From Naegleria gruberi (lineage: Eukaryota): a DNA stretch of 64,000 nucleotides. The notes under the pieces are model-generated. The model ran no database searches. It was not told the DNA's origin and saw only the letters and a program-made list of their open reading frames with translations. Below, one piece after another: positions 11,773-64,000 of the stretch (positions within the stretch are counted from its first letter, which is position 1; each line of letters starts with the position of its first letter). A program made the translations under genes and the position numbers. The stretch lies in the NCBI GenBank assembly GCA_000004985.1, contig GG738909.1; one strand, given 5' to 3'.

Positions 11773-11874
11773 GAGATGAGGTTGGTTTCGATCCAACGTC
11801 CATGGGGCATCCGTGTAACCTGTAAGAGATTAACACGTTTGGAGGTCCATGCTCTCCCTCTGAGCTACTCACCC
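11773..11874 (-). tRNA. tRNA-like locus. It could be an intron-containing tRNA (the loop CTCCAAA would give anticodon CCA, Trp) or a tRNA pseudogene.
   Basis: On the minus strand: acceptor GGGTGAG, U8A9, D arm GCTC-AGAGGGA-GAGC, T arm GTTGG-ATCGAAA-CCAAC with A54/A60, and a 3' acceptor strand CTCATCT (two G-U pairs). A 40-nt segment lies between the anticodon-stem 5' half (TGGAC) and the T arm. It holds a hairpin (CGTGTTAA...TTACACG) but no GTCCA to complete the anticodon stem. Confidence 0.4.
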
Positions 11875-15680: not shown

Positions 15681-18600
15681 CTATTTCTTATTTCTGGTTG
15701 ATGATCGTGTCTTTCGTGGTTTCTCTTCTTCATCACTACTAGTATCATCAAAACTTTCTTGTTTCTTTCTTCTTCGAGTGGTAGTTTCCTTTTTTGATGT
15801 TTCCTTCTTTTCAAAGAATTTTGCATACTGAATCTTGTTATCATCACTCATAAGATCTTGAACAGTTTCACCCTTATTATTTTTTAGAGATAGATCTATT
15901 ACTTCGAAAATAAAATCACAGCTGCGTGATTCTAAAGCATAAAAGGCTGCTGTTTTCAGTTCATTGTCTTGAGCATTTAGTGCATCTTGTCTGTTAACTG
16001 TTGAAAGATAATTAATCAAATCTTTCACTATGACATCTTTGTCGGGATAGTAATTAGGTTTTTGACATGCAAAGTGAATAAGAGTTTTTCCTGTATCGTC
16101 ACATTTGGTTGTAATCCAAGGAATCAAAATATCTTTGCTCAAATCTGAATTAATGAGAATATTCTTTTTCTTTCTTCCTGTTGTATCTTCAAGTACAATA
16201 TAAAACAATAGATACATTAATCCTTTCCAATAGCATATATCTAATAGACTGAAGTGGTGGTGCTTGTGGTTTTGTTTCCTTGGAGTGTTTTGTTTGGACC
16301 AAGCTAACTTGGCTTGAAACACAGTTTCCTCTAAAATGTTTAGCCAACCATTATTGTGGCAACAGTTTGGTGTGTCTTTAATTTTTTCTTCATTGTTTAT
16401 AGCAATCTTGAAACGTGTACTAAACATCTTAAACCTCTCCTCAAGAGTTAAATCAGAAAAAAGAGATGCAATTGTTTCTGCCATTTCAATTTGTCCATCC
16501 TTATTCCCAAATCTATGTTTTCTTTCAACAATTACACCAATTAGTATTTGCAAAATCTCTTCCTTTGTAAAGTCATGTGTATATGAATTATCAGAAATAA
16601 TAAAATAACAAATGTTAAAATGGTTTGATTCAAATGCTAACCGAAAATGTTTGATACTCCATTCTTGTTTTGTGGTAATATACATATTTCCTGCATCAAA
16701 AAGTCCTCTTTTTGCCAACTCATCCAAAATGGATGTACCATCTTTGAATGGCTCACTATAGAGATTATCTAAAATACTAAGAGAAGATTCATCGGAGAAG
16801 ATTTGATGAATTTGTTTAAGAATTTCAGTGGTTTCCATAATTACTGCTAGTTGGACAATATTAAGATTGCCATAAAATTCATCTTCATGTCTGAATGAAG
16901 CAATAATTGTGGCAATATCTGTAAAATTTGGTGGTTGGTACCGAAATGCTGTTAGGGAGTGATCAAGTTTAATACCAAGAATACCTTTTAAATATGAAAA
17001 ATCTAATGCCTCGGAGGATTTGCTTGAAATGACTGAGTAATAGAGTGCATCTGTTTTTTTGTTTGGAATATCAATAATATTTTCCAGTAGTTTTGCAGGG
17101 ATGAGAGGATTATCTGAGTAGAAGATTTCATGAATATCAGAATGGGAATTATGTCTATGATGGGAGCACAATGATAATAAATATAAGAGTGGTGAAATGG
17201 GAGTACCCTTAACAATACAAATCTTGGTCAGTGTATCTTCAAAATTATCAAAATATTTGAAGATTGTTCTTAAGTTTTCCAAGTTTGGATTGATAATAGA
17301 ATTAAATAGTTGCATTAACAATAAAGCTCTGTTGCGATCAAGATTACCCTTCTCATAATATGTATCAGACAATTCTGAAAGAGTCTCATTTAAATTACAT
17401 CCTCTAACAAGTAGATTTTCTAGTAAATCAAGTGTAGAAATCTTTTCATCACAGCCAAAATAGAAATGTGAATTTGGTTCATCTGAATCGAGTCTTTCTA
17501 TTACGTTGGTAAGGAAGCTTTTGTTGTTATAGCGTTTTGTCAATGTTTCTTCTGAAATTGAGTCAATAAGTGCTGTAACGTCAGTATCTGAGTTAAAGTG
17601 ACCTAAAAAGTAAAACAAAGGAAGATTTTCATCTTCATCAATAGCATTAGCATCAACTCCTAACTGGATTAATTTGCTAACTATTCCTCTTGCTTTAGAG
17701 CACAAATTGATTAATTTGTGCAGCAAGTTTTGATTCTTTTCAAATTTCAATTCATTAATTGATAAACCATATTTTGAATACGCTTTTCCAAATGCATCAA
17801 TTGTGGTTAATAATTCATTATTCTCAATATTTCTTTCAATTTCAATTCTTTTGATTAAACGTTCTAAAGGATTATAACCCTTATTATTTTTCATTTGAAA
17901 ATATTCTACTGGTACTGCATCAATAAGAGCTATCAGGAGTGTTAAATATTTAAAAAAAGAATAAACTACTTACATGGAGAACAAGGATGTATATGAATGA
18001 GATTATTTCCTGTTGTTGGACAAACAAACTTGACATCACAACCAGCCTTAATCAAGGATGAAATAATATTTTCATCAATAGTGTATTCATTATTGCTAGC
18101 ACCTGTCAAATATGAATGTAAAATGTTTAAATTCATTTCATCTCCATTCACAATACCTTTTACATCACCTAATGTAATAATAGATGGATTAAGAGTACAT
18201 AAAAATTCAATAATTTCTGGTTGATGAGTGGATTTACTTCTCTTAATGAACAATAATAATGGATTGATTTCTTCATCACATACAAGTGGAAAATTAGATT
18301 GTTCAAATAATATTTTAAACATTTTAGGACTGGAAGTACGAGATAATACTTGAGAAATAATATTCCAATCAATATCCATTGGAGATAGTAGATTTTTGAA
18401 AAATTGTTTTTCATACATGTAATCAATGATTTCATCATTTTCTATATAAAGAATTTGAGAGTAAGAAGCAAGTAGAGGTGTACCATAGCCTCTTTCCACA
18501 TGTTTTACATTCTCTTCTAAAATAAAGTCAATCAATGCTTTGCTATAAAGAGGTCCTGGTAATAATAGAATGTTCAATCTCTTAAGAGAGAAGTGTTGTT

Positions 18601-19612
18601 CCTTAACAAGGTATTTGAATAAATTAATTACATTTTCAGGAATAAGGCAATTTGTTACTGTTATAAGTGTTGAGTTATCTATATTCATTGCCTTGACAAT
18701 AGAGCTAAATTGAGTCAAATATTTCTTATTAGTAATGGATTGAATATTTGTAATATCTTGTCTGTAAGTGATATTCATTTCTAAAGGATAATTTCTACGA
18801 GTATCCACAGTGAGTGGGCCAACATAAAATATCTCCATAGTTTGTAATTTGTGAAAAAGAGTCAACATGTTATTTGGTACATTAACTCTGGTACCAAAAC
18901 CTGGTACAATTAACTTTTCAACATTTGGGAATAAAAGTGCCAATAATCTAATGCAATCATTATTTGTTCTAATATCACAATATGAATCATACCAAGGGAA
19001 ATTATATTTCACTAATTCATAATCGATATCATTTCTTTGAATCAAGTCAAGTTCCTTCACATTTTGACAAATGACTGTATCAAAATCATCTAACCACTGT
19101 TGTGAAATACATCTAATATTTAAAAAGTATGGAAATGGAGGAACATATTCAAGTATCATGTGGAGAATATGTCTAGGTAAATAACAATCAAATTTAGGTA
19201 AATAGAAAAATCCTTGTTCCTATCCAATAAAATCAATTAATATCAAGGCTTTAGAATAAAAACTTACCCAATCCATTCTTTTGACTTTTTTACTTCTAGC
19301 ATCCAATAAACGTTTAGTATTAAAAATACCAATAACAGATACTGATTGCTCACCATCCTCATCAACCATATTATCATCATTTCCCTCTTCTTCAACATTT
19401 TGTGAATCATCCCCAACTACTTCTTTAATTCTTTCTTCTGTACTCTTTTTTAATTTCTTTTTAGGAGCACGTAGTGGTTGTGGTGATTCATTTACTTTCT
19501 CTTCCGATGATGTTACAGAGTCATCAACATCACTCAACACTGAATCGACGGATTCATCTGATGAATAGTCAACATATTTAGTGGCTCGCTTTTTTCCAGT
19601 TCTTGGAGGCAT
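15681..19612 (-). CDS. F-box / ankyrin-repeat protein, ~1270 aa, three exons.
   Basis: Exon 1 (19268-19612) runs MPPRTGKKRATK...RMDW. A 48-nt intron follows, with a GTAAGT donor and an ATAG acceptor. Exon 2 (17966-19219) begins EQGFFYLPKFDCYLPRHILHMILEYV, an F-box-like motif. A ~70-nt GTAAGT intron at ~17895-17965 precedes exon 3 (15681-~17900). Exon 3 has ankyrin-like repeats (TGKTLIHFACQK..., LNAQDNELKTAAFYALESRS) and a basic KK/RR tail. Joining is frame-consistent. Confidence 0.65.
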
Positions 19613-34639: not shown

Positions 34640-35011
34640 AACTCTAGGATTGTATTTAATATACTATTATTATATTAGTTACGCTTATAATGAAATGAAA
34701 TATATAAATACAACAAACCTTTACAAATTGCTTCAAGGAATCTAGTTGTGAGACTGAAAACTTGATACCCTCCATTATGTTACTTCTTTTTTTAGGCTTT
34801 GAAAATCATTCTCTTCATACAACAAACAACTGATGTTCTTATAAATAATACAAAATGACTCTAAGATAACAACTAGATTAAAGTACATCAAACTACTCCC
34901 TACACTAGAATAATTCGGCTCCTAACTTGTAATCTCGATATCTCAGGAGAGTCTATTAGATTCAAAATATTCAAAAAAAAGCCGTTACACTAAAAGAACT
35001 ATTTCATCATC

Positions 35012-36667: not shown

Positions 36668-37699
36668 TTAAATATTTAAATTTGTTGGAAGTATATAATC
36701 TCCACTGTATCCTTCTTCACCTGTTCCTGCTGTTATTGTAATTATTTCATTATTTAAATCTATCATTTTAATTTGATGATTATCAGTATCAGCAATATAT
36801 AATATATTATTAATTGTTACAAAACAACCAAGTGGTGAATTTAATTCTTTGACCACTGCTGTATTAATTAATCCTGTTTTTAAATCAATTTTTCTAATTG
36901 AATTATTATCTCTATCTGCAATATATAAATTATTATTATTATCAAAACAAATATAAGCAGGGTAATTGAGTAAATTGTTAAAAGCATGATGATCATATTC
37001 ATTATTACCATTCTTACCATCAATACCTGCAACTTTCCATAATTTACCATTTTTATCAATCTTTCTTATGGTATGATTAGAAAATTCTGAAAAGTATAAT
37101 TCATCATCTTTTGATATTGCAATTCCATATGGACAGTTAATTTGTGAATTTAAGGCTAATGAACCATTTTCACTTTCTCCACTTGAACCATTTCCTACAA
37201 TAGTTTCTATTAAACCATTATCATCATCATCATTTAATGAAACTTTTCTAATTGCATGATTATCTCTATCAGCAATATATAAATAATTTCCATCATTTGA
37301 TAAACATATTCCACGTGGTGAATTTAAAAAAGAATTAATTGCTAAATTACCATCACCTACAAGTCCATAATCTCCACATCCAACAATGGTTGATATTATT
37401 CCATTATTATCAATTTTTCTAATTCTATTATTTCCCAAATCTGAGAAATATACATTTCCATTCCTATGATTAACAATAACACATACAGGTTTATTAATTG
37501 TAGCTTGTGTTGCCTTAATATTATCACCATTAAATCCTGCTTCACCTGTACCTGCAATAGTAATAATATTACCATTAATTATTTTTCTAATACAATGATT
37601 TTCTGTATCAGCAATATATACCTCATCACACTGATTCATATCTTGCTCACTATGAACAAAAACACTGAAAGGACGATTTAACTTTGCCTTAGTAGCCAT
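36668..37699 (-). CDS. NHL-repeat beta-propeller protein.
   Basis: Six repeats of the form Y(I/F)AD.DN..IRKI: YIADTENHCIRKI, YFSDLGNNRIRKI, YIADRDNHAIRKV, YFSEFSNHTIRKI, YIADRDNNSIRKI, YIADTDNHQIKMI. Confidence 0.75.
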   Translation of the reverse strand: MATKAKLNRPFSVFVHSEQDMNQCDEVYIADTENHCIRKIINGNIITIAGTGEAGFNGDNIKATQATINKPVCVIVNHRNGNVYFSDLGNNRIRKIDNNGIISTIVGCGDYGLVGDGNLAINSFLNSPRGICLSNDGNYLYIADRDNHAIRKVSLNDDDDNGLIETIVGNGSSGESENGSLALNSQINCPYGIAISKDDELYFSEFSNHTIRKIDKNGKLWKVAGIDGKNGNNEYDHHAFNNLLNYPAYICFDNNNNLYIADRDNNSIRKIDLKTGLINTAVVKELNSPLGCFVTINNILYIADTDNHQIKMIDLNNEIITITAGTGEEGYSGDYILPTNLNI

Positions 37700-39355: not shown

Positions 39356-39910
39356 TTTTTAATAATAGTCTATTTTCATAACATATTTGATACTTTCTAA
39401 TAATAATGTAATTATAATGATAAATAAAATTATTAGCTATTGATAAGCCATTAAAAAGTGTTTGTGAACAACAAGTTCGTTTCAGAATAATTCCTATGAG
39501 AAGAAGTAAATAGTCATAATGCAAGTTCATCCATCATCATAACAGTGAAATAAATAATGGTCCGATGGTGTGCAATCTTCAACCTGGCCGCTTAATTTCT
39601 TCACATCAAAAGTTTCATTGTAATCTTTGCAATATCTCCACCTTCTCCTTGAAGCTCACCTCATGCGGCCATTTAGCTCTTGCAACCTTGCTGAGACTTT
39701 TCACTGGAAAATTCATTAACGCTTTTAATAAAGTGGCGCCAAACTTCAAAATCTAATCAAAAAAAAACAAAATCTAATTTATTATCGCATCAATCACATT
39801 GTTGCAAATTGTATCACACAACAGTTGTTTTTTTGATCAAACACACCACTTGCAGCTGTAACAATAACAAATATATAATTTGTGTATAATATTAAAATAC
39901 AGAGAGGAGT

Positions 39911-42900: not shown

Positions 42901-45900
42901 TATTGATGGATCAGGTAAAACACCATTAATGGCCATGATTCATGCATTCACTCCTTCAAATTATTCACAACAACATGAACTTGCTGAAGATTCAGATGGT
43001 GAAGCAACACCATTCCCTGTCTCTGCTAAAACAATTCAAGAATCTGTTTTTGATAACATTTTTGATGTGAGTGAACCAGAAAAGAAGAAGAAATTTACAA
43101 AGAAGAAGAAGGATATTTTAATGAGAAAATCAAATAATGATTCAGATGAAGAAATGGAAGATCATGAAGATGAAGATGATGATGAAGAAGATATTTCAGA
43201 TGAAGAACATTCTGAAACAAGTAAACTTGATGATTCAACAATGGTTGATAAATCAATGATGGAAGATGATGAAAGTATTCATTCACATTCATCAGCATCT
43301 TCAGATGATGAAGAAGAAGCAGCAGAACATGAATCAGCAATGATTAATGATTCATTCATTGATGATTCTGAAGCTACTCCTTCTAAATCTAAGAAGGCTT
43401 TATTTAAATCTATTCTTACAACTACAATGGAAGAAGATGAAGAAGAAGTAACAACAAGTACTCCACTTCTACTCCTGGTATATTTGGTGCAACATTCCCA
43501 ACTAGTAGAGCATCAGCAGTAGCATCATCATCTTCTTCAACAACAACAGAAGCAACAGCATCAGCAACAGTTGAAGATTTAGATTCAGATGGTGAACCAT
43601 ATGAAATTGATTATTATGGTAATAAGAGAAAGAAGAGAGAAATTCCAACATCACAATCTGTTGATAGATTTTTAGAATTCCTCGACAAGTATCTTTCATT
43701 AACTAAAACATCACTTAAAAATGCAGTAATTGAACATATTCCATACAAATCAAAAGTTAAAGTTAAAGATGTTCATACAGGTAAAATGAGAGTTAAATCA
43801 TATCCAAATAATGAATGTATTGGATATACACCAATGCACTATGCAATTGCAAGACAATCAGATCAATTAATCAAAGCATTTGTTTCAAAATATAGATTAA
43901 ATGTTAATGCTAAAGATTTCAAAGGTATTACACCACTTCATTTAGCTGTTTCTGCAACAAGTCAAAATGAAGGAATGATTCATGCAGTTAAATATTTATT
44001 GAAATATGGTGCTGAATTGAATGTTAAAGATTCAATTGGTAGAAGTCCATTCTTTTATTCATTTACAAATATTCAATATAATCCTATTTCAAGTGGTGGT
44101 AATTCTTATAATTACAATTATAATAGTAGATATAATAATACAAGTAGTAATGATCCAATTGAATTAGTATCAGATATGTGTAATTTTGAAGGTATTGAAA
44201 CTGATATTACAGATAAATATGGACGTTCACCATTACATTATGCTGCTATTAGTGGTGCAACTATAAGTAGTATTTTCCTAATTCAAAGAGGTGCAGAATT
44301 GAATCGTAAAGATGAAGATGGTAATACTCCAACTAATTTAGCATTATTATCTTCACGTGTTGATTTTGTTGTTACTTTAATTAATAAGGGAGGTGATGTT
44401 CATGCTCCAATTTATGATCAATTATCAATTAATATTAAATCTATTAGACAACAATTGAGAGAACAATTACAAGCTGAAAAGGTTCAATCAATCAAAAAAT
44501 CTAAACATGTTATTGGTGCATCAACAGTTAAAGATTCAGATGATGAAGATGATGAAGATGAAGAATCTGAAGTTGAAGAATCTGATGAAGATTCATATGA
44601 TTCAGATGATTCAAATTATAATTCTAAACCAATGAAATCATCCACATCTGAATCAATTGAAGAAGAACCAATTGAAATTTCACAAGAAGAACAAGTTTCA
44701 ATTTATGAACAAGTTAAAAATAAGCAATTAGATTCATGTACAATGTTTAAATATGCACTTTCTAGATCTTATATGGGATTAGCTTATTTAATTATGCAAG
44801 AACCTAATATTAAACCAACACAAGTAATTTCAGATGCTTTAGAAACACATCAATATAGTCTAGTACAAAAATTAATTAGAAAGACACGTAATGATTTATT
44901 ATTGAATGATTTAAATTCAGATGGTCAAAATGTTATGCATTTAGTTGCAAAGAATTCAGATTCATCACGTGAATGGAAAGATACATGGGCTATTACTATT
45001 ACTAAAATGTTATTACGTCGTTCTTTAAATTTGAATTTAACTGATAAAGTTAAAGGAAGAACACCACTCCATTATGCTTCAATTAATTCAAATGCAGAAT
45101 TAGTTTCATTATTATTGAAACATGGTGCCTCTCCAAATACATTAGATTCAAAATATAAGAGATCTGCACTACATTATGCATGTAAAAATGGTACTGATAC
45201 AACTCATATGAAATATAGATCATCCTATTCATCTTCAACATCTTCAACAGATGCAATTTATTCAATTATTGAATCATTAATTGGATCTAATGCTAATATT
45301 GATATTCAAGAAGGTAAATATGGTAGAACAGCACTTCATTTCTCTGTTTTAAATAGAGATAAATTAGCAGTTAAAGTATTAATAACACATGGTGTTAATA
45401 CTAATGTTAAAGATAGACATTTAAATAGAACACCATTACATTATGCTACTATTGAAAATATAACAGAAATTGTTAAAGTTTTATTAACATCACCTACTAT
45501 TAATGTTAATATTGAAGATAATGATAAGAGAATTGCATTACATTATGCTATTGGTATTAATTTATTTGGTTATATTCAAAATATTGAAATTGTAAAGGAA
45601 TTAGTTAAATCTAAATCTGATATTTTACATCAAGATTTAAATGGTAAATCACCACTTTATTATTCTTTAAGACAAACTAATGGTACCTATACTAAAATAT
45701 TACAACCTAATGAAAGTAAAATTGATGAAAAATTAAGAGAATCTTCACAATCTGAAATTAAATCATTAATTGAATATATGAATACATTTACAATTCCACA
45801 TATAAATGTAAATGTTGAAAAGGATGCTTCACAAGCACTTGAAGATTTTGAAAAGGAAGAATTAACTAGACCTGAAACTGAAGAAGAAAAGAAGGAAAGA

Positions 45901-47541
45901 ATTCCTAAAATGGATAAACATTGTAAATTGAAGAATTGTAAAGTTTTAATTGATGATTCTACTACTACTTCTACTACTTCTAATAAGGATGATAACAATG
46001 ATAATAATACTGATAATACTGATAATAACAATGATAATAACAATGATAACAATGATATTAAATATTATCATACTATATTAAACAAGACAGATGTTAAATA
46101 TGGTACAAGTGGATATAATAATTTTTATATATTACAAATTGGATATAATCAAGATCAAAATTTATATGTACTATTAAATAGATATGGTAGAGTAGGTGAA
46201 GAAGGACAATATCAAACAACACCATTCCAATCTAAAGATGAATGTATATCTGAATTTAAAAAGATATTTAAATCTAAAACAGGTAATGAATGGGGTAAAG
46301 AATTTGAAGAAAAGACTAAAAAGTATAAAGTTGTTGATATTAGTAAGAGAAAAGTTAGAGATCCACTTCAACCTATTGATTTATCTAAATCTGTACAATC
46401 TAAATTACCAACACCTATTTATAATTTAATGAAATTAGTTTGTGATATTACTTTATTAAGAAAAGATTTAATTAGATTAGGTATTTCAGATGAATATTTT
46501 AGTTTAGGTAAATTATCTAAAGATAGATTAAAGAAAGGATATCAAATATTAGGTGATATATTAAAATTAATTAAGGAAACTAATGATCATACAGTACAAT
46601 TACCTGCATCTGAAATTCTAGTTAAATTAAATCAAATTGCAGATTTATCAAATGAATTTTATTCATTAATTCCACATAGAAATTTTGTTAATTGTGCTAT
46701 AAAATCAATTGATAGAGAGAATGATGTTTTAGAAAAGATGAAATCACTTGAAGATTTAATTGAATTAAGAACAGCTGCACGTATTTTATTAGCTGCTACT
46801 TTTAATTTACCTAAAATGAATCCATTAGATTATACTTATCATGGTTTAGATACACAATTAGCATCATTACAATCAACAGATGAAGAATTTTCAATTATTA
46901 ATAGATATATTCAACATACAAATAGACATGCTTGTTCTGTTGATACTGTTAATATATTTAGAGTTAATAGAAAGGGTGAATCTCAAAGATATGAATCATT
47001 CCTATCAAAACAAGAAGAATCCAATAAGAATTGTCATAGAATGTTATTATGGCATGGTAGTCCAATTTCTAATTTCCTTTCAATTCTTTCAAAAGGTTTA
47101 TTAATTGCACCAAAAGAAGCACCTGCAAGTGGATACATGTTTGGTAAGGGTATTTATTGTGCAGATATGTTTTCAAAATCATTTGGATATTGTAGAGCTG
47201 AGAGAGATTCTTCAACCAATGAAACACATGCACTATTATTATTATGTGAAGTTTGTATTGGTAATCCATACAAGACCTATTCTGCTGAATATATGGATCA
47301 AGCAAAGGATGGATTCGATTCTACAATGGGTGTCGGTGAAGTTGGTCCCTCTCCAGATGAACCATTCGTACAATATGATGGTGTACATATTCCATTAGGT
47401 TCAATCACTAGTAATCCAAAACCACCTATTGCTCTAACTCAAAGATATTGGTCATTCCCATTAAGTTACAATGAATACATTGTTTATAACATAGATCAAG
47501 TTAAAATTAGATATATGGTACATGTTAAATCAAAGAATTAA
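39911..47541 (+). CDS. Giant ankyrin-repeat WGR-PARP (poly(ADP-ribose) polymerase). Two ORFs are separated by an apparent frameshift near 43441-43522.
   Basis: ORF1 (39911-43522) has an AT-hook-like RGRPKK, acidic/K-rich tracts and many ANK repeats (TPLHYAAKYGHSQNIEIL, SPLHLAAWYNQIDVCKKLIE ...). ORF2 (43786-47541) has more ANK repeats. It has a WGR domain (YHTILNKTDVKYGTSGYNNFYILQIGYN...LLNRYGRVGEEGQYQ). Its PARP catalytic signature reads LLWHGSPISNFLSILSKGL...GYMFGKGIYCADMFSKSFGYC...LLLLCEVCIGNPY. ORF2's frame is open upstream to 43441 and overlaps the ORF1 tail. The 264-bp spacer is coding-like, not AT-rich intergenic. Confidence 0.6.
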
Positions 47542-47895
47542 TTATATTTATTATATGAAGGAAACCATAAAATAAAATTATTGGAGATTCAATAAATTCC
47601 AATAGATCTTTTACATGGAGGTAAATGATTACAGTAAAACTATTAGAATTACATCAACAATGTGTTGAATTGACAAAACTCCATTTCATTTCGATGGCTT
47701 CCTCAGTTTTTGTTTCAGATACTATTATTATTATTCGATGGAGAATTGAGCTCGTTAAACCTTTCTCTTGTTGTAGCCTCTCCTACATGTGTAGATCTCG
47801 CAACTTCTGATAATTTCATATCAATCGAGCATGATTGTAATGCAAGTAAAAGAGCAGGTCTCCCTGAATCTACTAAACATTCTTTCATAGCAACC

Positions 47896-48333
47896 CTAAT
47901 AATTCTCATCCTCAAATTGATATCTGTTTTTAGTCTTGATATTTTTGAGAATGCTGTGCCTCACGACAAGAGTGTTACTAGCCTTGCAAGAGATGATGAT
48001 AAAGTCTCTATCAATGGTAATGTTCAGCCATATTTTAGAGTTTACCTCCTCCTCAACTGTGAATATCTTGCCTAATTCATCATCCCGAATGCACAATACT
48101 GTGTTGCAGGTTGTGATGAAACATTCACCAACATCATTGAAAGCTAGGGACAGAGGATCTATCAATTTAACAATACCTATTGATGAGAATGTAGAAACAA
48201 GTGTGCCGTCGATTGGATTTAGTTTGACAACTCTATTGTTGCCCGTATCACAAACAAATAATGTAGATTTGTTGTTATTATCATAGTCACCATCATCAAA
48301 TGGAATGCCAAACCCTTCATTGCCAGCAAACAT
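47896..48333 (-). pseudogene. NHL-repeat ORF fragment with atypical codon usage, inside a compositionally odd island. It may be a pseudogene or a mobile-element relic.
   Basis: 145-aa ORF with an NHL motif (LFVCDTGNNRVVKLN). Its codons (GGC, ACG, CGG, CTG, GAC) are rare in the rest of the window. Surrounding DNA (47560-49300) is less AT-rich, holds short direct repeats and has no long ORF. Confidence 0.3.
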
Positions 48334-49307
48334 TTTCAGATGAATATTTCAGAAAATTCATTAGTCATTATCACATAAAGTTTCCAAATCTTTATCAATT
48401 TCCTTGTATTTTCTTCCCAGCTCAAAAATACTGTATCTTGTTACTTCTGAAAGATCCAAAAGTGTTATGGGTAGTTTTTTCATGTCTACACACTACATAG
48501 AGAGCTCTAGCTATACACCCATCACTTTTCTTTTGTATATTTGAGTTTGTTAATATCGCTTTATTCTGATTCTTCCTCCTTTTCGTTGTCTTTTCTAATG
48601 CATATGAACAAATATCACTTCAGGTAAGATCTTATAAGATTTAACTCAATCACATTTGGATGTAAAATATTAGTACACGGGTCTTTGATAATGATGTATT
48701 TGGTTGGTAAGCTATTAATAAATAATTCGCGAATTCAACAGTAAGTAAGAATATCGCTTGGATTGGCACTAAAATATCAATAACTTAGAGTTTGTAAACT
48801 AATTGGTACTGCAAGTTACAGTGTGTTTGAAAATACTCGTATTTACTAACTCTAAGTGTGGTTACTAACTATTTGTGAATATAACTAATGACCGCTTTAG
48901 AAGCTTATACTGCACAAATCATCAGTGGGAAGTTCAACACTCTAAGTGAGAGTTAGTTATTTTGTCATAAGATATGATCTGTGTATACACTCCGCTTTTT
49001 AATGGGATACCAACTTTGTTATTGTACCAACTTTGACCCATAACGACAATAAAAATTTCGTTGTTATAAAATATCCATAACCATTACAAACCATCTTGTT
49101 ATTGGATGTAAGTTGGCATTAAAATCAACACAGTTTTTGAGTTCAGATATTCAATGTTACAATTTATGTGTTTGATAAAGATATTGTTCAATTAAAATTG
49201 GAGAGAAATCATGTCATATGCACATTGAGCAAGTAAGCACCACATAAATTACCAGAATATTGAATAAAGGCAAATAAATCAAATTAAGTTTAATATTTTA
49301 TTTACAT

Positions 49308-52300
49308 TTATAGAATATCAGGAAGAATATCATCAAGTATAAAGTCAGAGTCATCAATATCTAAAGAGTTGTTTTCTGTTTTTGGTGTAATAGAATCAAG
49401 CTTTAACTTTTTAGGTTCAGGTTCAATTGAAGGTTTCTTTGGAGGTAGAAATGTTGGAGGTGATTTATGTTGAGTAAATGATGATACTGCTGCTGAGCTA
49501 TGAGAACTATTTGAAGATGATGGTCTATTAATTGTAGTTATTGGTGATTTGAAAGTTGGTGGAATAAATTTGGGTGTTGATAAAGAAGTAGTACTATTAA
49601 CATTTGAAGAACTACTACCAATATTATTAATATTATTATTATTAGAAATGGAAAGAGGTGTATTGTTGATGGTATTGTTAATTGTTGTAGTAGTAGTAGT
49701 CTTTGATTTGGTTGGAGGAGTTCTCTTAGCAAATGGAGAAATAGAAGCACTTCCTTGAAATGAAAATTTAGCTAATAATTGTTCAAGTTCTGAAGGTTTG
49801 TTTTCTGGTGTAATATTAGTTAATCTATTATTATTATTATTATGATTGGGTGGTGTTGATGGTGGTGGTGATGTTTTTGATAAATTAAAGTTTGGTGGTG
49901 GTGAAGTATTATTAGTAATATTAGTAGTAGTATTATTAGTATTAGTATTTCCTACTGGACTTGGTATTGATGGAATTTGAGATGAAGTTGATAATAATTT
50001 AGGTGGTAATGTCTTATTGTTGGGTAATATAAATTTAGATGGTGTAACAAATTTAGTTGATTGAATTGAATCTGATTGAGTTCTTTTAAATGCATTAGAT
50101 AGATTGAGAAATGATGATGAATTAACTTTCTCTTCTTGTTCATCTTGCATAAAATCATCATTTAATCCACTATTACTTTCATTACTAATGGTAGTGATAT
50201 TGTTGCTACTACTACTACTACTACTGCTATTATTATTTGGAAGTTTTTGTTTGAGATTACTAGTATTTGGTAGTAGTGAAGATGATTTTAACTTTGAAAA
50301 GAAAGGACTTGTCTTTTGAGTAATTGAAGAATTATTCTTCTTTGGAGTTCCAAAAGTAATATCATCATCATCATCATCTGAATTAACTTTCATATCATCC
50401 TCTTCCTCTTCATCATCTAAATGTCTTTTTTTAGTATTATTATTTTTAGTATTATTATTAGTATCTCTAAATGATTTGTTATAAGTATATTCCTTCTTTT
50501 GAGTGCTACTACTAGTATTAAATATTTTAGTATTACTATTATTATTATCATCTCTCATTAATATTATATTTGGTGGTAATTTACCATTCTTTGTACATAA
50601 AAATCCTTTTAAAAAGTCTGTTGCAGTACTATTTGGTGGAGGAACTACTTTTCTAATATCTTCTTCATTGGCATGATGACTTTGAGTACTACTACTACTT
50701 CCAACACTACGACTATTACTACCACGATTAGTAGTATTACTATTACTTCGATTAGATTGAGATAGCTTGGGTGATTCTCTTTCCTTAACTGATGGTGATG
50801 ATTTGAGTTTTTGTTTCTTCTTTTCCAATTCTTCATAATATTCCTCTTCTTCATCTTCATCAAGATAGTCTCTTTCTTTCATATCTTGATAATATGCTGA
50901 TGATGCTCCACCAGCATAACTTCCATCCTCCTCATTATATTCATCCTCATCATTATCATTATCATCATAGGTATTAGTTCTATCAAATATAACTTGATCA
51001 ACATTTCTATCAACATGTGATTCACCATCTACAGATTTACCAACAACTTCTAATTTTTTTTGTAAGAGAGGCCATAAATATTCATCAAAAGTATCCTTTC
51101 CTAATAAATATTTAATAGAGACAGCATTAGTTTGACCCATACGATGTACTCTATCTTCAGCTTGTCTTAAATCACTTGGAGTCCAATATAATTCAGCAAA
51201 TAAAACAGTACTACATGGTGTCATTGTATATCCAACACCTGCAGCTTTAATTGATAGAATGGCAACTCTACAATGACCATTAGTTCTAAATGTATTAACT
51301 AAATTTTGTCTTCTATTTGAATCAGTTGATCCATCAATTCTAATATAATAATCACCTCTCATTTTTTTTTGTAAATCTTTAGATTTCTTTTTCTGACCTT
51401 TTAAATTATAAAATTTAGCCAATTCCAATGCAACACATTCTTCAATTCCATCCATTACTTCTTTATGATAGGCAAATACTAAAAATTTTAAATCACCTGT
51501 ATTTTCAATCATATCTTGAATATATTCTTTAACAGCAGGTAATTTAGCTTTACCTGTCATTGTATACATTCTAAATATTTCACTATTCTTATCAAAATTA
51601 GATTGATTATGTTCTTCTGATGTGATGGCTGTTTTCATCTTTTCAATTGCTCTTTTCATTCTCTCAGCTGAAAATTCTAATTGTTTTAAATCACTTGGTT
51701 TTACACTTAATAAAACACGTTGTCTTTGTTTTTCAGGTAATTCTGATAAAACTGTTTCCTTCCTTCTTCTAATCATTACAGTTCTTGAGAGTAGATAATT
51801 TAATTCTAATACATTTGAACTACCTTTATCATCAAGACCAAATTGTGTTTCTTTAGCATCACAATATCTATAGGTGAATGCACTTCTTGTAAATGTAAAT
51901 TTATCATCCAATAATAAATTTAATTGTGGATAAACTTCAACTGGACGTGATAGAGCAGGTGTACCTGTTATCATTACTAATCTTTTAGCTTGTTTTAGAA
52001 ATGGTACAATGTGTGAACTTCTCTTTGTTGATGAATTTTTAAGATAATGCGACTCATCACAAATGATACAATTAAATTTAATACCATTTAAAATTGCACC
52101 ACCACCACCACCATCATTATTACATGGTTGACTTTCTAACATATTAGCTGCCATTGTATATGAAACTATATTAATATAATTATCAGGTATTTGTTTACCA
52201 TGTGAAATTATTTTAATCTTTTCCATTGTAATATCTGTATGTCCTCTTTCACTTGTTATAAACCATTCTTCAATTTCCTTTCCCCAATTATGTTTAAGTG

Positions 52301-53600
52301 AACTTGGACATATTATTAATAATGGCCAATCTTGTTTAAAATAATACATGGTTGATAATCCTTGAAGTGTTTTACCAACTCCCTATTACATATTATTATT
52401 AAAAATAAATAATATTAAATATTAAATATTAAAATAAATTATATTTAAATATAGTATTAAAATTATTAAAAATAAATATATTAAATATTAAAAAAATAAA
52501 TAAATAAAAAAACCTACCATTTCATCACCTAAAAGAACTCTTCCTTCTCTTTTAACAGCAAATGAAATACCTTGTTTTTGAAATGGTCTTAATTTAGTCC
52601 AAACTTGTTTTGGAAATTTATGTGCCAAATCCAATTCATTACATAATTGATCAGTTTTAGAAATATCAATTTGTGGATAATTATTAATTATTAATTTAAC
52701 AATTTCTGGAAAATCTTGAACTTGAATAGAAGCACCATCAATTTTAACATCAAGTAAAAATGTTCTTAAAGTTTCATGTTGATCTAATGGAAATAAATAT
52801 TCCAAATCATTTAATTTTGTAATCTTGTTATCAAATAATTCTTTAAGTGATCTTAATAATTTATCCATAATAAATCCTAATTTTGGAAATGTTACTAAAA
52901 CACAATCATAATTTGCATTATTAAATACTAAAGTTTCATGTCTATCTTTTTGTTGTTTCATTGCTTGTTGAAGAATATTACTTCCTACTAATTGTAAACT
53001 AATTGGATAATGAACTCCAAGTGTATTCTTAGATGAATAGGTTGAACTATAGAGTGGTCTATTTTGAATCTCTGGATTTAATAAATAATCTGCTACTTTG
53101 GTTCCTTCTTTACACCATTCAAAATAACAACCATGTTCTATATTACAACACCAAAATAATTTACCCTTGTTATTACCTTCTTTAACAACTCTTTTCTGTA
53201 CACACGTAATTTGATGTTTGGGACACAATGGTGCTCCAATATCATCATCATTGTTAGTATTATTATTATTGTTAGTATTATTGGATCCGATAGTTGATGA
53301 TGAAGCCTGTACAAAAGTGGAAGACGATGATGATGATGCACTATTATTTACAAATGATGAAGGTGGTGGTATAAATCTATTCGGAGTATTATTATTATTA
53401 TTATTAAAATTATTATTCGAAGGCTTTGGTTTGACACCATTATCACTCCACTTGAAAAAATTACATCTTTCTCGATCACCAAAATTTCTTGCACATGCCC
53501 AATATTCTCTTCCCATATTATCACCCTTTTTAGTTACACGAAGTTGAGCCAATGCTCCACATTTGCATTGAATTAAATCCGGTGCATGGGAGTCTGACAT
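49308..53600 (-). CDS. SNF2-family DNA-dependent ATPase with two N-terminal GRF-type zinc fingers. Two exons.
   Basis: Exon 1 (52518-53600) has two GRF fingers, CKCGALAQLRVTKKGDNMGREYWACARNFGDRERCNFFKW and CPKHQITCVQKRVVKEGNNKGKLFWCCNIEHGCYFEWC. It ends ...LRPFQKQGISFAVKREGRVLLGDEM. A 135-nt AT-rich intron with a GTAGGT donor follows. Exon 2 (49308-52382) begins GVGKTLQGLSTMYYFKQDWPLLIICPSSL, giving motifs I and Ia. It also carries the DESH-like CDESHYLKN, helicase-C motifs (LSIKAAGVGYTMTPCSTVLFAELYWTPSDLRQAEDRVHRMGQ) and a ~450-aa S/N/T/P-rich tail. Confidence 0.8.
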
Positions 53601-58156: not shown

Positions 58157-59946
58157 ATGTCAAATAAACAACAACAACAACATGAAATATTTACTCTCAT
58201 GCCAGGAGATATACTAGTAATTAAAATTATTAGAGGAGAGGATTTAATAATAGCAGATGCTAATGGTAAAAGGTAATTATAATACCTCTATTTACTAATA
58301 TCATTATTTACTTTACAATATAATTATTATAACTATTATACAACTATCTATACAACACAATATATAATAATACAATATATCTATTACAATAAAATAACGT
58401 AATAAAGTGATCCCTATACAATAATAGATTTTAAACAAAGATTAAAAGATTTTAAATTGAGTTCATTTAGACATTTAGTTGAAGTTTCAAATGAAAAAGT
58501 TTTACCTGGTGGTTTAGTTGGTGGTTTTTTAAGAACTACAACTCAAATGAAAACTGTATGTTTTATTTGTATTCAATTATTTATATTTAATTATTTATTT
58601 TATATTTATATTTATATTTAAATAGTTAAATCCAATATGGAATGATGAATTTCAATTTGAAATATTAAATGAAATGGATAATTTATTAATACATTTTTAT
58701 GTTTATGATTGGGATAGATTAACTAAAGATGATCGTATGTATATATTATTTTATTTAAAAATTTTATTAAAATTATATTATTAAATATATATTATTTAAA
58801 TATATTATATTAAATATATTATTTAAATATTTAAATATAAATATGATAATAGCAATGGGTGATGTAATATTTACATTAACAAAAGAAGATTTATATTTTC
58901 TAGTAAATAAACCAAGAGAATATAAATTAAATTTACAAAATGTAGAAACAGGTAATATTATATTTGAAATTACAATTTTAGAAGGTCCATTAAGATTAAA
59001 ATCACTTTCACTTCAAAGTTATAATTCATTTCTTAAACATGCTCCAAGAGGTACATTATCAAATACTAAATTATCAGGTTTAAATATTTCTAATAATAGT
59101 AATGATACTAAAAATAGTGATGGATGGAAAGAATTAAGTGAATTAAATAATTATCCAATTGAAATGGAAGTACCATTTGAATGGGATGTTTCTAAATATG
59201 AAATTGGTACTAATGAATTTGATAATTTAATTATACATTTAAAATTACAACCATCTTATGAAAATAATTCTAAAAATACAAAACCTACTATTTATATTAA
59301 TATTGAACAATTTCATCATATTTCTATTAATAATGAAAATGATAATAATTTAACAATTAATACTACTACTAGTAATGATTCTAATAATAATGATACTAAT
59401 AATACTACTAATAATAATGATACTAATAATAGTAATAATAATTCTAATTCTAATAGTAATAATACATTTAAAAAAGAAGAAGAAGAATTTATTCAAAAAT
59501 ATATTCTGAATGAAATTGATGATAAAATGAAAAAGAGTTTAAATTTTGAAATGTATAATAATGGTATGATATTATCAATACATGATAAAAAACAAATTAA
59601 AAGTTGGAGATATCAATATGAAAAAATTAAATTAAATTTTACAAATAATTCCAATTTAACTATTAAAAAAGAAAATATTGAAGATTTATTATTAAATCAA
59701 ATAGGTGAAAATAATTCAAACAAATTATTAAATGTAATTTATTATTTTATATTTGGTAATTACATGTTTTGTTTTAGATTGGAAAATTCAAATGAATATT
59801 CAACTTTTAAAATTGATACTTTAATTGATTTAGTTAAAAGTATTATTAGAAGAATTAAAATTATTCAAAATGATAATGATAACAAAGAAAATGAACAAGA
59901 TAATGATCAAGATGAACAAGATGAGAAGCAAATTAAACAAATTTAA
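58157..59946 (+). CDS. C2-domain protein, copy 1. Four exons.
   Basis: Exon 1 runs MSNKQQQQHEIFTLMPGDILVIKIIRGEDLIIADAN... Exon 2 reads DFKQRLKDFKLSSFRHLVEVSNEKVLPGGLVGGFLRTTTQMKT. Exon 3 reads LNPIWNDEFQFEILNEMDNLLIHFYVYDWDRLTKDD, a C2 core with a DWD pattern. Exon 4 (58853-59946) is an N-rich tail. Introns are AT-rich with GTAAAA/GTATGT donors. Confidence 0.6.
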
Positions 59947-59998: not shown

Positions 59999-62900
59999 NN
60001 NNNNNNNNNNNNNNNNNNNNNNNNNNNNNNNNNNNNNNNNNNNNNNNNNNNNNNNNNNNNNNNNNNNNNNNNNNNNNNNNNNNNNNNNNNNNNNNNNNNN
60101 NNNNNNNNNNNNNNNNNNNNNNNNNNNNNNNNNNNNNNNNNNNNNNNNNNNNNNNNNNNNNNNNNNNNNNNNNNNNNNNNNNNNNNNNNNNNNNNNNNNN
60201 NNNNNNNNNNNNNNNNNNNNNNNNNNNNNNNNNNNNNNNNNNNNNNNNNNNNNNNNNNNNNNNNNNNNNNNNNNNNNNNNNNNNNNNNNNNNNNNNNNNN
60301 NNNNNNNNNNNNNNNNNNNNNNNNNNNNNNNNNNNNNNNNNNNNNNNNNNNNNNNNNNNNNNNNNNNNNNNNNNNNNNNNNNNNNNNNNNNNNNNNNNNN
60401 NNNNNNNNNNNNNNNNNNNNNNNNNNNNNNNNNNNNNNNNNNNNNNNNNNNNNNNNNNNNNNNNNNNNNNNNNNNNNNNNNNNNNNNNNNNNNNNNNNNN
60501 NNNNNNNNNNNNNNNNNNNNNNNNNNNNNNNNNNNNNNNNNNNNNNNNNNNNNNNNNNNNNNNNNNNNNNNNNNNNNNNNNNNNNNNNNNNNNNNNNNNN
60601 NNNNNNNNNNNNNNNNNNNNNNNNNNNNNNNNNNNNNNNNNNNNNNNNNNNNNNNNNNNNNNNNNNNNNNNNNNNNNNNNNNNNNNNNNNNNNNNNNNNN
60701 NNNNNNNNNNNNNNNNNNNNNNNNNNNNNNNNNNNNNNNNNNNNNNNNNNNNNNNNNNNNNNNNNNNNNNNNNNNNNNNNNNNNNNNNNNNNNNNNNNNN
60801 NNNNNNNNNNNNNNNNNNNNNNNNNNNNNNNNNNNNNNNNNNNNNNNNNNNNNNNNNNNNNNNNNNNNNNNNNNNNNNNNNNNNNNNNNNNNNNNNNNNN
60901 NNNNNNNNNNNNNNNNNNNNNNNNNNNNNNNNNNNNNNNNNNNNNNNNNNNNNNNNNNNNNNNNNNNNNNNNNNNNNNNNNNNNNNNNNNNNNNNNNNNN
61001 NNNNNNNNNNNNNNNNNNNNNNNNNNNNNNNNNNNNNNNNNNNNNNNNNNNNNNNNNNNNNNNNNNNNNNNNNNNNNNNNNNNNNNNNNNNNNNNNNNNN
61101 NNNNNNNNNNNNNNNNNNNNNNNNNNNNNNNNNNNNNNNNNNNNNNNNNNNNNNNNNNNNNNNNNNNNNNNNNNNNNNNNNNNNNNNNNNNNNNNNNNNN
61201 NNNNNNNNNNNNNNNNNNNNNNNNNNNNNNNNNNNNNNNNNNNNNNNNNNNNNNNNNNNNNNNNNNNNNNNNNNNNNNNNNNNNNNNNNNNNNNNNNNNN
61301 NNNNNNNNNNNNNNNNNNNNNNNNNNNNNNNNNNNNNNNNNNNNNNNNNNNNNNNNNNNNNNNNNNNNNNNNNNNNNNNNNNNNNNNNNNNNNNNNNNNN
61401 NNNNNNNNNNNNNNNNNNNNNNNNNNNNNNNNNNNNNNNNNNNNNNNNNNNNNNNNNNNNNNNNNNNNNNNNNNNNNNNNNNNNNNNNNNNNNNNNNNNN
61501 NNNNNNNNNNNNNNNNNNNNNNNNNNNNNNNNNNNNNNNNNNNNNNNNNNNNNNNNNNNNNNNNNNNNNNNNNNNNNNNNNNNNNNNNNNNNNNNNNNNN
61601 NNNNNNNNNNNNNNNNNNNNNNNNNNNNNNNNNNNNNNNNNNNNNNNNNNNNNNNNNNNNNNNNNNNNNNNNNNNNNNNNNNNNNNNNNNNNNNNNNNNN
61701 NNNNNNNNNNNNNNNNNNNNNNNNNNNNNNNNNNNNNNNNNNNNNNNNNNNNNNNNNNNNNNNNNNNNNNNNNNNNNNNNNNNNNNNNNNNNNNNNNNNN
61801 NNNNNNNNNNNNNNNNNNNNNNNNNNNNNNNNNNNNNNNNNNNNNNNNNNNNNNNNNNNNNNNNNNNNNNNNNNNNNNNNNNNNNNNNNNNNNNNNNNNN
61901 NNNNNNNNNNNNNNNNNNNNNNNNNNNNNNNNNNNNNNNNNNNNNNNNNNNNNNNNNNNNNNNNNNNNNNNNNNNNNNNNNNNNNNNNNNNNNNNNNNNN
62001 NNNNNNNNNNNNNNNNNNNNNNNNNNNNNNNNNNNNNNNNNNNNNNNNNNNNNNNNNNNNNNNNNNNNNNNNNNNNNNNNNNNNNNNNNNNNNNNNNNNN
62101 NNNNNNNNNNNNNNNNNNNNNNNNNNNNNNNNNNNNNNNNNNNNNNNNNNNNNNNNNNNNNNNNNNNNNNNNNNNNNNNNNNNNNNNNNNNNNNNNNNNN
62201 NNNNNNNNNNNNNNNNNNNNNNNNNNNNNNNNNNNNNNNNNNNNNNNNNNNNNNNNNNNNNNNNNNNNNNNNNNNNNNNNNNNNNNNNNNNNNNNNNNNN
62301 NNNNNNNNNNNNNNNNNNNNNNNNNNNNNNNNNNNNNNNNNNNNNNNNNNNNNNNNNNNNNNNNNNNNNNNNNNNNNNNNNNNNNNNNNNNNNNNNNNNN
62401 NNNNNNNNNNNNNNNNNNNNNNNNNNNNNNNNNNNNNNNNNNNNNNNNNNNNNNNNNNNNNNNNNNNNNNNNNNNNNNNNNNNNNNNNNNNNNNNNNNNN
62501 NNNNNNNNNNNNNNNNNNNNNNNNNNNNNNNNNNNNNNNNNNNNNNNNNNNNNNNNNNNNNNNNNNNNNNNNNNNNNNNNNNNNNNNNNNNNNNNNNNNN
62601 NNNNNNNNNNNNNNNNNNNNNNNNNNNNNNNNNNNNNNNNNNNNNNNNNNNNNNNNNNNNNNNNNNNNNNNNNNNNNNNNNNNNNNNNNNNNNNNNNNNN
62701 NNNNNNNNNNNNNNNNNNNNNNNNNNNNNNNNNNNNNNNNNNNNNNNNNNNNNNNNNNNNNNNNNNNNNNNNNNNNNNNNNNNNNNNNNNNNNNNNNNNN
62801 NNNNNNNNNNNNNNNNNNNNNNNNNNNNNNNNNNNNNNNNNNNNNNNNNNNNNNNNNNNNNNNNNNNNNNNNNNNNNNNNNNNNNNNNNNNNNNNNNNNN

Positions 62901-63072
62901 NNNNNNNNNNNNNNNNNNNNNNNNNNNNNNNNNNNNNNNNNNNNNNNNNNNNNNNNNNNNNNNNNNNNNNNNNNNNNNNNNNNNNNNNNNNNNNNNNNNN
63001 NNNNNNNNNNNNNNNNNNNNNNNNNNNNNNNNNNNNNNNNNNNNNNNNNNNNNNNNNNNNNNNNNNNNNNNN
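59999..63072. other. Assembly gap: 3074 N.
   Basis: Uninterrupted run of n characters. The X-only ORF 59992-63078 in the track is an artefact of this gap. Confidence 0.99.
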
Positions 63073-64000
63073 CTCTAATGCCAGGTGATATACTAGTAAT
63101 TAAAATTATTAGAGGAGAGGATTTAATAATAGCAGATGCTAATGGTAAAAGGTAATTATAATACCTATATTTACTAATATCATTATTTACTTTACAATAT
63201 TATTATAACTATTATTATTACAACTATCTATACAACACAATATATAATAATACAATATAACTATCACACAATTTTATAAAATAACGTAATAAAGTGATCC
63301 CTATACAATAATAGATTTTAAACAAAGATTAAAAGATTTTAAATTGAGTTCATTTAGACATTTAGTTGAAGTTTCAAATGAAAAAGTTTTACCTGGTGGT
63401 TTAGTTGGTGGTTTTTTAAGAACTACAACTCAAATGAAAACTGTATGTTTTTTTTTAGTATTATTTATTTATTTTATATTTATTTGTATTCAATTATTTA
63501 TATTTATTTATTTTATATTTATATTTAAATAGTTAAATCCAATATGGAATGATGAATTTCAATTTGAAATATTAAATGAAATGGATAATTTATTAATACA
63601 TTTTTATGTTTATGATTGGGATAGATTAACTAAAGATGATCGTATGTATATATATTATTTAAATATTTTATTAAAATTATATTATTAAATATTATATTAT
63701 TAAATATTATATTAAACATTATTAAATAATTAAATATATATGATAATAGCAATGGGTGATGTAATATTTACATTAACAAAAGAAGATTTATATTTTCTAG
63801 TAAATAAACCAAGAGAATATAAATTAAATTTACAAAATGTAGAAACAGGTAATATTATATTTGAAATTACAATTTTAGAAGGTCCATTAAGATTAAAATC
63901 ACTTTCACTTCAAAGTTATAATTCATTTCTTAAACATGCTCCAAGAGGTACATTATCAAATACTAAATTATCAGGTTTAAATATTTCTAATAATAGTAAT
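63073..64000 (+). CDS. C2-domain protein, copy 2 (partial at both ends). Near-identical tandem paralog of 58157-59946.
   Basis: After the gap the sequence resumes inside exon 1 (MPGDILVIKIIRGEDLIIADANGK). It repeats exons 2-4 of copy 1 with the same intron positions. Introns differ only by small AT indels, and there is a 2-nt difference at the exon 1 start (ctctaatgccaggtgat vs ctcatgccaggagat). Confidence 0.55.

Follow-up and report, generated by a model that had tools for sequence, protein, structure and literature searches.

The 64,000-nt stretch of contig GG738909.1 that is analyzed here (the window) contains, between two convergent host genes, a spacer of 1.77 kb (47542-49307) that is filled entirely by an island of unusual composition. 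This island is best understood, and with good confidence, as a young, non-functional mosaic pseudogene, neither a transposon nor a working gene, in which the relic of a TFIIB/Brf-type gene is combined with a fragment of an NHL-repeat gene. The initial annotation of this DNA, made from the letters alone, described a 145-aa open reading frame (ORF) with an NHL motif and proposed a mobile-element relic or a horizontally acquired or pseudogenised fragment. The last of these proposals is borne out, in the form of 378-392 nt from the interior of an NHL gene, lying in a frameshifted TFIIB/Brf-like relic. That annotation has no mention of the TFIIB-like relic, the larger of the two parts. A mosaic pseudogene is in itself ordinary; its detailed description is new. 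The features of the island are listed here, P0001 being the intact homologue of the NHL fragment.

48364-48619, minus strand: relic of cyclin repeat 1 of the TFIIB/Brf family (SDICSYALEKTTKRRKNQNKAILTNSNIQKKSDGCIARALYVVCRHEK / LPITLLDLSEVTRYSIFELGRKYKEIDKDLETLCDND), followed by the stop codons TAA and TGA at 48363-48358
48475-48480, minus strand: A6 homopolymer, the frameshift site inside a conserved helix; a one-base insertion is the simplest lesion, and the shift may lie up to about 10 nt downstream
47954-48345, minus strand: sense internal fragment of an NHL-repeat (six-blade propeller) gene, equivalent to residues 202-326 of P0001, with the motifs of blades 3, 4 and 5
47718-47953, minus strand: relic of cyclin repeat 2 of the TFIIB/Brf family (AFSKISRLKTDINLRMRIIRVAMKECLVDSGRPALLLALQSCSIDMKLSEVARSTHVGEATTRERFNELNSPSNNNNSI), with a stop codon at 47717-47715 and a Pfam TFIIB score of 16 bits alone
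47896-48333, minus strand: the 145-aa ORF, an accidental reading frame made of a window-specific ATG, 125 NHL codons and 19 further codons (SILKNIKTKNRYQFEDENY)
48620-49200, no strand: ORF-free island DNA with a GC content of about 0.30, two local direct repeats and a hairpin-forming inverted repeat

The interrupted TFIIB/Brf-family relic

The minus-strand frames upstream of the NHL fragment read ...GCIARALYVVCRHEK and then LPITLLDLSEVTRYSIFELGRKYKEIDKDLE, and the frame downstream of it reads AFSKISRLKTDINLRMRIIRVAMKECLVDSGRPALLLALQSCSIDMKLSEVARSTHVGEATTRERFNEL; on both sides this is TFIIB-type cyclin-repeat sequence. The two repeats are on one strand and in the correct order, with the NHL piece in sense orientation in the linker between them, and the TFIIB-like sequence resumes after this piece almost exactly at its break point. 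The reading frame of repeat 1 changes at or just past the A6 run (48480-48475), and deletion of one A from this run generates CRHEKLPITLLDLSEV, which is colinear with CRQEGVPRTFKEICAV of TFIIB. The Pfam TFIIB score of repeat 1 is 23.8 bits for a crude joining of the frames and 28.3 bits when one A is deleted, the 40-aa ORF of this repeat having no match when scanned alone against Pfam, and the repeat aligns without gaps to residues 137-207 of human TFIIB. When both repeats are joined, with one A removed and the NHL piece excised, the Pfam TFIIB match is 42.1 bits (E 9.2e-11) in two stretches, so that two tandem cyclin-fold repeats are present, but only after this one-base frame repair and excision. 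In the PDB, the repaired relic matches human TFIIB (4e-6), Pyrococcus TFB (1e-5) and yeast Brf1 (1.2e-5), and the alignments with yeast Brf1 and archaeal TFB cross both repeats.

When compared with the TFIIB/Brf1/archaeal TFB family (PF00382), the relic shares the two tandem cyclin-fold repeats, colinear with human TFIIB, yeast Brf1 and Pyrococcus TFB, but fits no subfamily. It is about equally far from TFIIB, Brf1 and archaeal TFB (roughly 28% identity to any of them and 28-30 bits). The second repeat ends ...HVGEATTRERFNEL, like ...HVAEETLQQRLNEF of Brf1, and it seems to be without 6-7 residues after GRP when compared with TFIIB and Brf1, which is a lead only. The relic also differs from these proteins in being frameshifted and split and in having no detectable zinc ribbon, B-reader or C-terminal region of the Brf kind. 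Across the 700 nt upstream, where the codon-model signal is weak, no zinc ribbon, N-terminal region, linker or open frame is detectable by Pfam, by inspection of the frames or by a codon-model scan. Ten upstream minus-strand segments have no match in Pfam, and tblastn searches there for the N-terminal parts of TFIIB give chance-level matches only. Extension of the relic upstream by a second assumed frameshift was also tried and is rejected, as no score is gained.

The coding sequence of this TFIIB-like copy is broken by the frameshift at or near 48475-48480, by the stops at 48358-48363 and by an insertion of 380-390 nt. The 164 alignable TFIIB codons contain one frameshift and no stop, which suggests that the parent gene was under selection until recently. 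A parent TFIIB-like gene is not found in searches of protein, JGI metagenome and other collections, and a literature search for dictyostelid TFIIB pseudogenes found no papers.

The NHL fragment and its intact counterpart

The NHL identity of the 145-aa ORF, as claimed by the initial annotation, is real: this ORF, the longest in the stretch, does contain LFVCDTGNNRVVKLN. Its own Pfam NHL score is 13 bits, compared with a curated cut-off of 20. An exhaustive HMMER (phmmer) search with the ORF gives 1577 matches at E<=1e-3 among 1.84 billion cluster representatives, and the four matches that were checked (P0002, P0007, P0020 and P0023) are all strong Pfam NHL proteins. The far strongest match is P0001, a protein of 367 aa that is 95-97% identical to residues 2-128 of the ORF and is encoded on L001, a metagenome contig of 1,604 bp in the ENA (ERZ929261 contig k127_434186).

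P0001 resembles the six-bladed NHL propellers (PF01436; for example the PknD sensor domain, 1RWI, and Thin/TRIM) in passing Pfam NHL with 33 bits, in its PDB matches to PknD, Thin and the designed Pizza propellers, and in having six DxxNxR-type blade motifs, as counted by eye; its AlphaFold2 single-sequence model is too poor for a blade count (pLDDT 33). It has no close relative besides itself among the same 1.84 billion cluster representatives. The window fragment has the DTGNNRVVKL motif of these propellers but differs from them in covering residues 202-326 only, with three of six blades, a fortuitous start and an unrelated tail.

The geometry of the insertion is well defined when considering the alignments with L001. 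By blastn, positions 740-1117 of L001 and 48331-47954 of the window are 97.9% identical over 378 nt, and a gapped match reaches 48345 (96.7% over 393); by tblastn of P0001 against the window, 121 of 125 residues are identical. The 3' boundary of the fragment is sharp at 47954, and the remainder of the 367-aa protein is not in the window. At the 5' junction a 7-nt ATTCATC is shared, followed by 7-8 unmatched bases. On re-reading of the alignment, five of the eight mismatches between the fragment and L001 come from two 3-nt indels that keep the frame within a D/Y/N codon repeat, and the true divergence is 4 substitutions (2 synonymous, 2 not), or about 1%. A 29-nt flanking duplication at the insertion was considered and is dropped: its copies lie in AT-rich sequence and agree at only 59%, which does not fit an insert that is 98-99% identical to its counterpart.

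Clearly, the 145-aa ORF is a by-product around a gene fragment and not a gene. It is an accidental frame because its ATG, which lies at the junction, is specific to the window (the intact gene has GAG there) and because its last 19 codons are TFIIB repeat 2 read out of frame and unrelated to P0001. No identical protein is on record: four exact-protein look-ups of window ORFs, this one included, gave no match. A word-indexed protein search with the ORF gives no match, despite the presence of a 95%-identical protein in the collection that was searched; the negatives of this method are weak. Only three DxxNxR-type motifs are present in the fragment, compared with six in P0001 and with the five or six repeats of a closed propeller. 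No function is expected, because three of the six blades are too few for a closed propeller and because the TFIIB core is interrupted and without N-terminal modules. For annotation this means that the 145-aa NHL ORF is not a gene and that the region should be labeled a TFIIB/Brf-like pseudogene with an NHL gene fragment.

The contig L001 itself carries three genes on the same strand, with spacers of 75-150 nt and without introns; no paper was found in a literature search on its metagenome accession. Both visible start codons on L001 lie in AATAAAATGTCC, and the TTG called as a start at 138 is probably an error, the ATG at 213 being more likely. Within the window, an apparently intact host gene (36668-37699, minus strand; GC3 0.08, local codon usage) also contains NLYIADRDNNSIRKID, an NHL-like motif; this gene has no relationship to the parent of the NHL fragment (tblastn E 0.4).

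Compositional class and origin of the island

The GC content is 0.321 for 47560-49300 and 0.327 for the core (47620-49200), and it reaches 0.36-0.38 in the middle, compared with 0.17-0.23 in the other ORF-free spacers of the same half of the window, so that the island is indeed less AT-rich than its surroundings, as first described. The GC contents at the three codon positions of the 145-aa ORF are 0.39/0.32/0.39, whereas the GC3 is 0.08 and 0.11 in the two flanking genes. In the NHL part, GGC occurs 40 times per 1000 codons, compared with 0.2 in the genes of 35-60 kb, and the excess of ACG, CGG, CTG, GAC, TGC and ATC is similar. The initial annotation called these codons foreign to the neighboring genes. 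This is correct for the half of the window in which the island lies but not when considering the ORFs of 1-34.6 kb, in which the same codons occur at intermediate rates (3.0 GGC per 1000 in the 12 long ORFs). The general style of the window is that of an AT-rich genome of the social-amoeba type, in which compact genes with short AT-rich introns go together with tracts of poly-N and poly-T, but two blocks can be distinguished.

1-34.6 kb (A, 12 long ORFs): GC3 0.17-0.38, spacer GC 0.29-0.35, inferred introns of 40-48 nt, GGA at least as frequent as GGT, TTA and TTG mixed
35-60 kb (B, 9 long ORFs): GC3 0.04-0.13, spacer GC 0.17-0.23 plus one spacer of 0.30, inferred introns of 70-135 nt with 3-10% GC, GGT and TTA preferred

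The two blocks differ in intron length (Mann-Whitney p = 0.005), in GGA/GGT (p = 5e-6) and in TTA/TTG (p = 9e-27), and the switch falls within the 370-nt divergent spacer at 34640-35011. The B half (35012-59998) is richer in Asn and homopolymer runs. In block A there are five tRNA genes, spliceosomal introns and ordinary-looking cellular genes, the four ORFs sampled for their family being an MPN-domain protein, a GATA factor, a lipase-like protein and an RCC1-type protein. The fifth of the tRNA matches (11773-11874, minus strand) is a 102-nt Rfam match of 36 bits at a place where ARAGORN gives none, and it may be an intron-containing tRNA gene.

The island, though inside B, is A-like in composition. 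Its codon scores toward the A class (log2 likelihood ratio per codon) are +0.31 to +0.70, compared with +0.05 to +0.46 for A and -0.09 to -0.25 for B; the highest value is that of the NHL fragment, which is beyond any A ORF. Two genes of L001 are also A-like (+0.57 and +0.40). The ORF-free part of the island (48620-49200), with its GC content of 0.30, is like the spacers of 1-34.6 kb and unlike the local ones, and it may be the degraded 5' part or the upstream DNA of the TFIIB-like copy. The genome may truly consist of two compartments, a large block may have been transferred, or the scaffold may be chimeric; any of these could give the A/B contrast. The contrast is unusually sharp in composition, codon preference and intron size, and it would indicate either a chimeric assembly or a real but uncommon genome organization.

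We infer that both parts have their parents at other places of the same genome and that templated insertion or ectopic repair, and not a transposon, brought in the NHL piece. Presumably, an incomplete copy of a TFIIB/Brf-like gene came to lie in the spacer between the convergent host genes, and 380-390 nt of the NHL gene were copied into it, before or after its arrival there; an extra base in or next to the A-run breaks the frame of repeat 1. The fragments would come from a GC3-richer part of the same genome, which is the simplest source because block A has tRNA genes, introns and cellular-looking genes. The raised GC content and the unusual codons would persist because the DNA has had no time to decay to the local AT-rich state. 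The youth of the island is suggested by the alignments, the NHL piece being about 1% from L001 and the TFIIB-like part having few lesions. The fragment would then record and date a recent arrival of DNA in a spacer, at about 1-2% from the intact gene of an environmental contig.

This is also in agreement with what is described for mosaic or chimeric pseudogenes that are generated by templated insertion or filler-DNA capture (and for NUMT-like insertions and chimeric retrocopies), in which a sense piece of one gene lies in another gene with abrupt junctions, no transposon ends and near-identity to its source. The island differs in that its junction microhomology is weak and that it has neither poly(A) nor intron loss as a sign of an RNA intermediate.

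Several points weigh against this explanation. That the parent was an intact gene is concluded from the few lesions in the 164 alignable codons, and the homopolymer frameshift could be a sequencing error. An excision from GT (48374) to AG (47960) joins the cyclin repeats in frame, so that splicing around the NHL piece may be conceivable. The intact NHL gene is known only from the 1.6 kb metagenome contig, and for the putative templated insertion the 5' junction offers only the 7-nt match and the unmatched bases described above.

Alternative explanations

The alternative that survives best, though it is unlikely, is that the DNA was captured from another organism and has decayed since; the donor would be an amoeba, whether co-occurring or prey, or a large DNA virus that encodes a TFIIB-like factor. 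In composition the island stands apart from both flanking genes; the codon usage of the NHL fragment is beyond that of any window ORF; the equal distance of the relic from TFIIB, Brf1 and TFB is as expected of a non-canonical or viral-type factor; and the environmental contig that carries the intact NHL gene has short spacers and is free of introns. However, no donor lineage (viral, bacterial, archaeal or JGI metagenome) was found, neither the NHL nor the TFIIB part having relatives among the viral contigs of IMG/VR, the metagenome contigs of JGI or the bacterial and archaeal genomes of GTDB. There are no viral hallmark genes (capsid, polymerase B, packaging ATPase) near the island, the neighbors looking cellular by translation (only the PARP gene was family-checked), and a literature search on giant-virus insertions in dictyostelids found nothing relevant. 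An internal source is also simpler, as the same composition is seen in the 12 cellular-looking ORFs of 1-34.6 kb, which are accompanied by tRNAs and introns.

A related and decidedly unlikely reading extends the foreign origin to the whole of the first 35 kb, which, together with the island, would be DNA of a second, GC3-richer eukaryote inside an AT-rich Dictyostelium-like genome. The contrast to be explained would be that between introns of 40-48 nt with GGA/TTG-rich codons and introns of 70-135 nt and 3-10% GC with GGT/TTA. If this were true, the mosaic would be a small decaying trace of a recent eukaryote-to-eukaryote or virus-mediated transfer and not of an internal duplication.

Assembly error, in which an AT-rich spacer that is difficult to assemble was filled or bridged by reads of a contaminant or of another locus to give a chimeric mosaic, is very unlikely. 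The abruptness of the mosaic junctions could be seen in this way, and so could the abrupt change at about 34.7-35.0 kb, where composition, codon preference and intron size all shift, perhaps because of chimerism; the scaffold also has a gap of 3,074 N beside a 94% duplicate. Against this, no Ns are in or beside the island, both flanks pass smoothly into the normal AT-rich 3' regions of intact genes, and the repeats shared at the junctions, of 7 nt at most, are too short to mislead an assembler. Resumption of the TFIIB-like sequence at its break point fits a biological insertion and not random misjoining. Homopolymer error rates also appear low, the flanking ORFs of 1013 and 1251 aa and 19 others of at least 250 aa being uninterrupted.

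The reading preferred by the initial annotation, a transposable-element relic that carried or captured gene fragments, is highly improbable. Gene-fragment mosaics are typical of some capturing transposons, and the island lies approximately between the arms of a weak inverted pair of 16 nt (47656-47671 / 49122-49137) with 81% complementarity. This pair is at chance level, as are the other inverted pairs, and a search for terminal repeats and target-site duplications found neither, there being no flanking duplication. A Pfam scan of the main ORFs of both strands and of the upstream minus-strand segments found no transposase, reverse transcriptase, integrase or tyrosine recombinase, and a second copy of the island in the 64-kb window was not found by blastn or tblastx. 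A poly(A) tail is absent, and the island has no tRNA gene, either inside it or within 20 kb. The dictyostelid transposons include DIRS-1, Skipper, DGLT-A, TRE5/TRE3, Tdd, DDT and thug; they are GC-richer than dictyostelid spacers and often fragmented. The island is similarly GC-richer than the spacers and fragmented, but it has no element-type domain, terminal repeats, tRNA-gene association or extra copy in the window.

Equally improbable is a live spliced host gene making a TFIIB-like or NHL protein, the stops and frame changes being spliced out or being sequencing errors: the 415-nt GT...AG excision (48374-47960) does join repeats 1 and 2 in frame (...KDLETL-C-TAFSKIS...) and the sole lesion in the alignable TFIIB core is one homopolymer base, but the putative intron has a GC content of 0.38 and a GTGATA donor, whereas the approximately 12 inferred introns of the window are 40-135 nt long with GTAAGT, GTGAGT, GTATGT or GTAGGT, the frameshift in the conserved helix cannot be spliced out, the upstream DNA has no open N-terminal region or zinc ribbon, and three of six propeller blades cannot form a domain.

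The upstream part of the island, flanking genes and other loci

The short direct repeats reported earlier both exist, in the upstream part of the island (TTACTAACT at 48843 and 48862; ACCAACTTTG at 49009 and 49026), but two such repeats are only marginally in excess of chance in Markov simulations (P about 0.06) and are given no weight. The hairpin-forming inverted repeat of 16 nt is at 48783-48798 / 48842-48857, and RNA folding of the repeat-rich region 48760-48975 gives z values of -1.3 and -2.1. There is no Rfam family in the island, a permissive scan giving sub-threshold noise only. A six-frame concatenate of the remaining island has no protein homologue in the word-indexed search, of which the negatives are weak. 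Bacterial promoter and terminator scans of the island are at shuffle level and are irrelevant for a eukaryote.

The convergent host genes on both sides of the spacer are the following.

43786-47541, plus strand: left flanking gene with ankyrin repeats and a PARP catalytic domain, GC3 0.08; its homologues have PARP, WGR and ankyrin Pfam domains
49308-52349, minus strand: right flanking gene, convergent with the PARP gene, GC3 0.11

The PARP homologues found by the word-indexed protein search are all distant (Willaertia 46%, Basidiobolus 40%), with no dictyostelid among them. The right flanking gene is presumably a SNF2-type helicase, as its sequence reads by eye, and beside it, at 52383-52517, is a 135-nt intron with 4% GC.

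The single B spacer with a GC content of 0.30 holds a second small GC-rich islet (about 39480-39760; about 0.40-0.44), which has no long ORF; it is surrounded by AT-rich spacer DNA, and a gene begins 160-440 nt downstream of it, at 39920. For its 64-aa plus-strand ORF (MVCNLQPGRLISSHQKFHCNLCN...) there is a sub-threshold zinc-finger hint only, and the islet has no match in Rfam. At 59999-63072 is a run of 3,074 N, and its flanks (58194-59103 / 63073-64000) form a tandem duplicate of 94% identity, in which lies a gene interrupted by several AT-rich introns; this locus is probably a collapsed or unresolved tandem gene array. In block A, two minus-strand ORFs of 397 and 737 aa (15681-19159) can be joined in frame via a 44-nt GTAAGT...ATAG intron at 17930-17973, and they probably belong to a single ankyrin-repeat gene with a product of about 1,140 aa.

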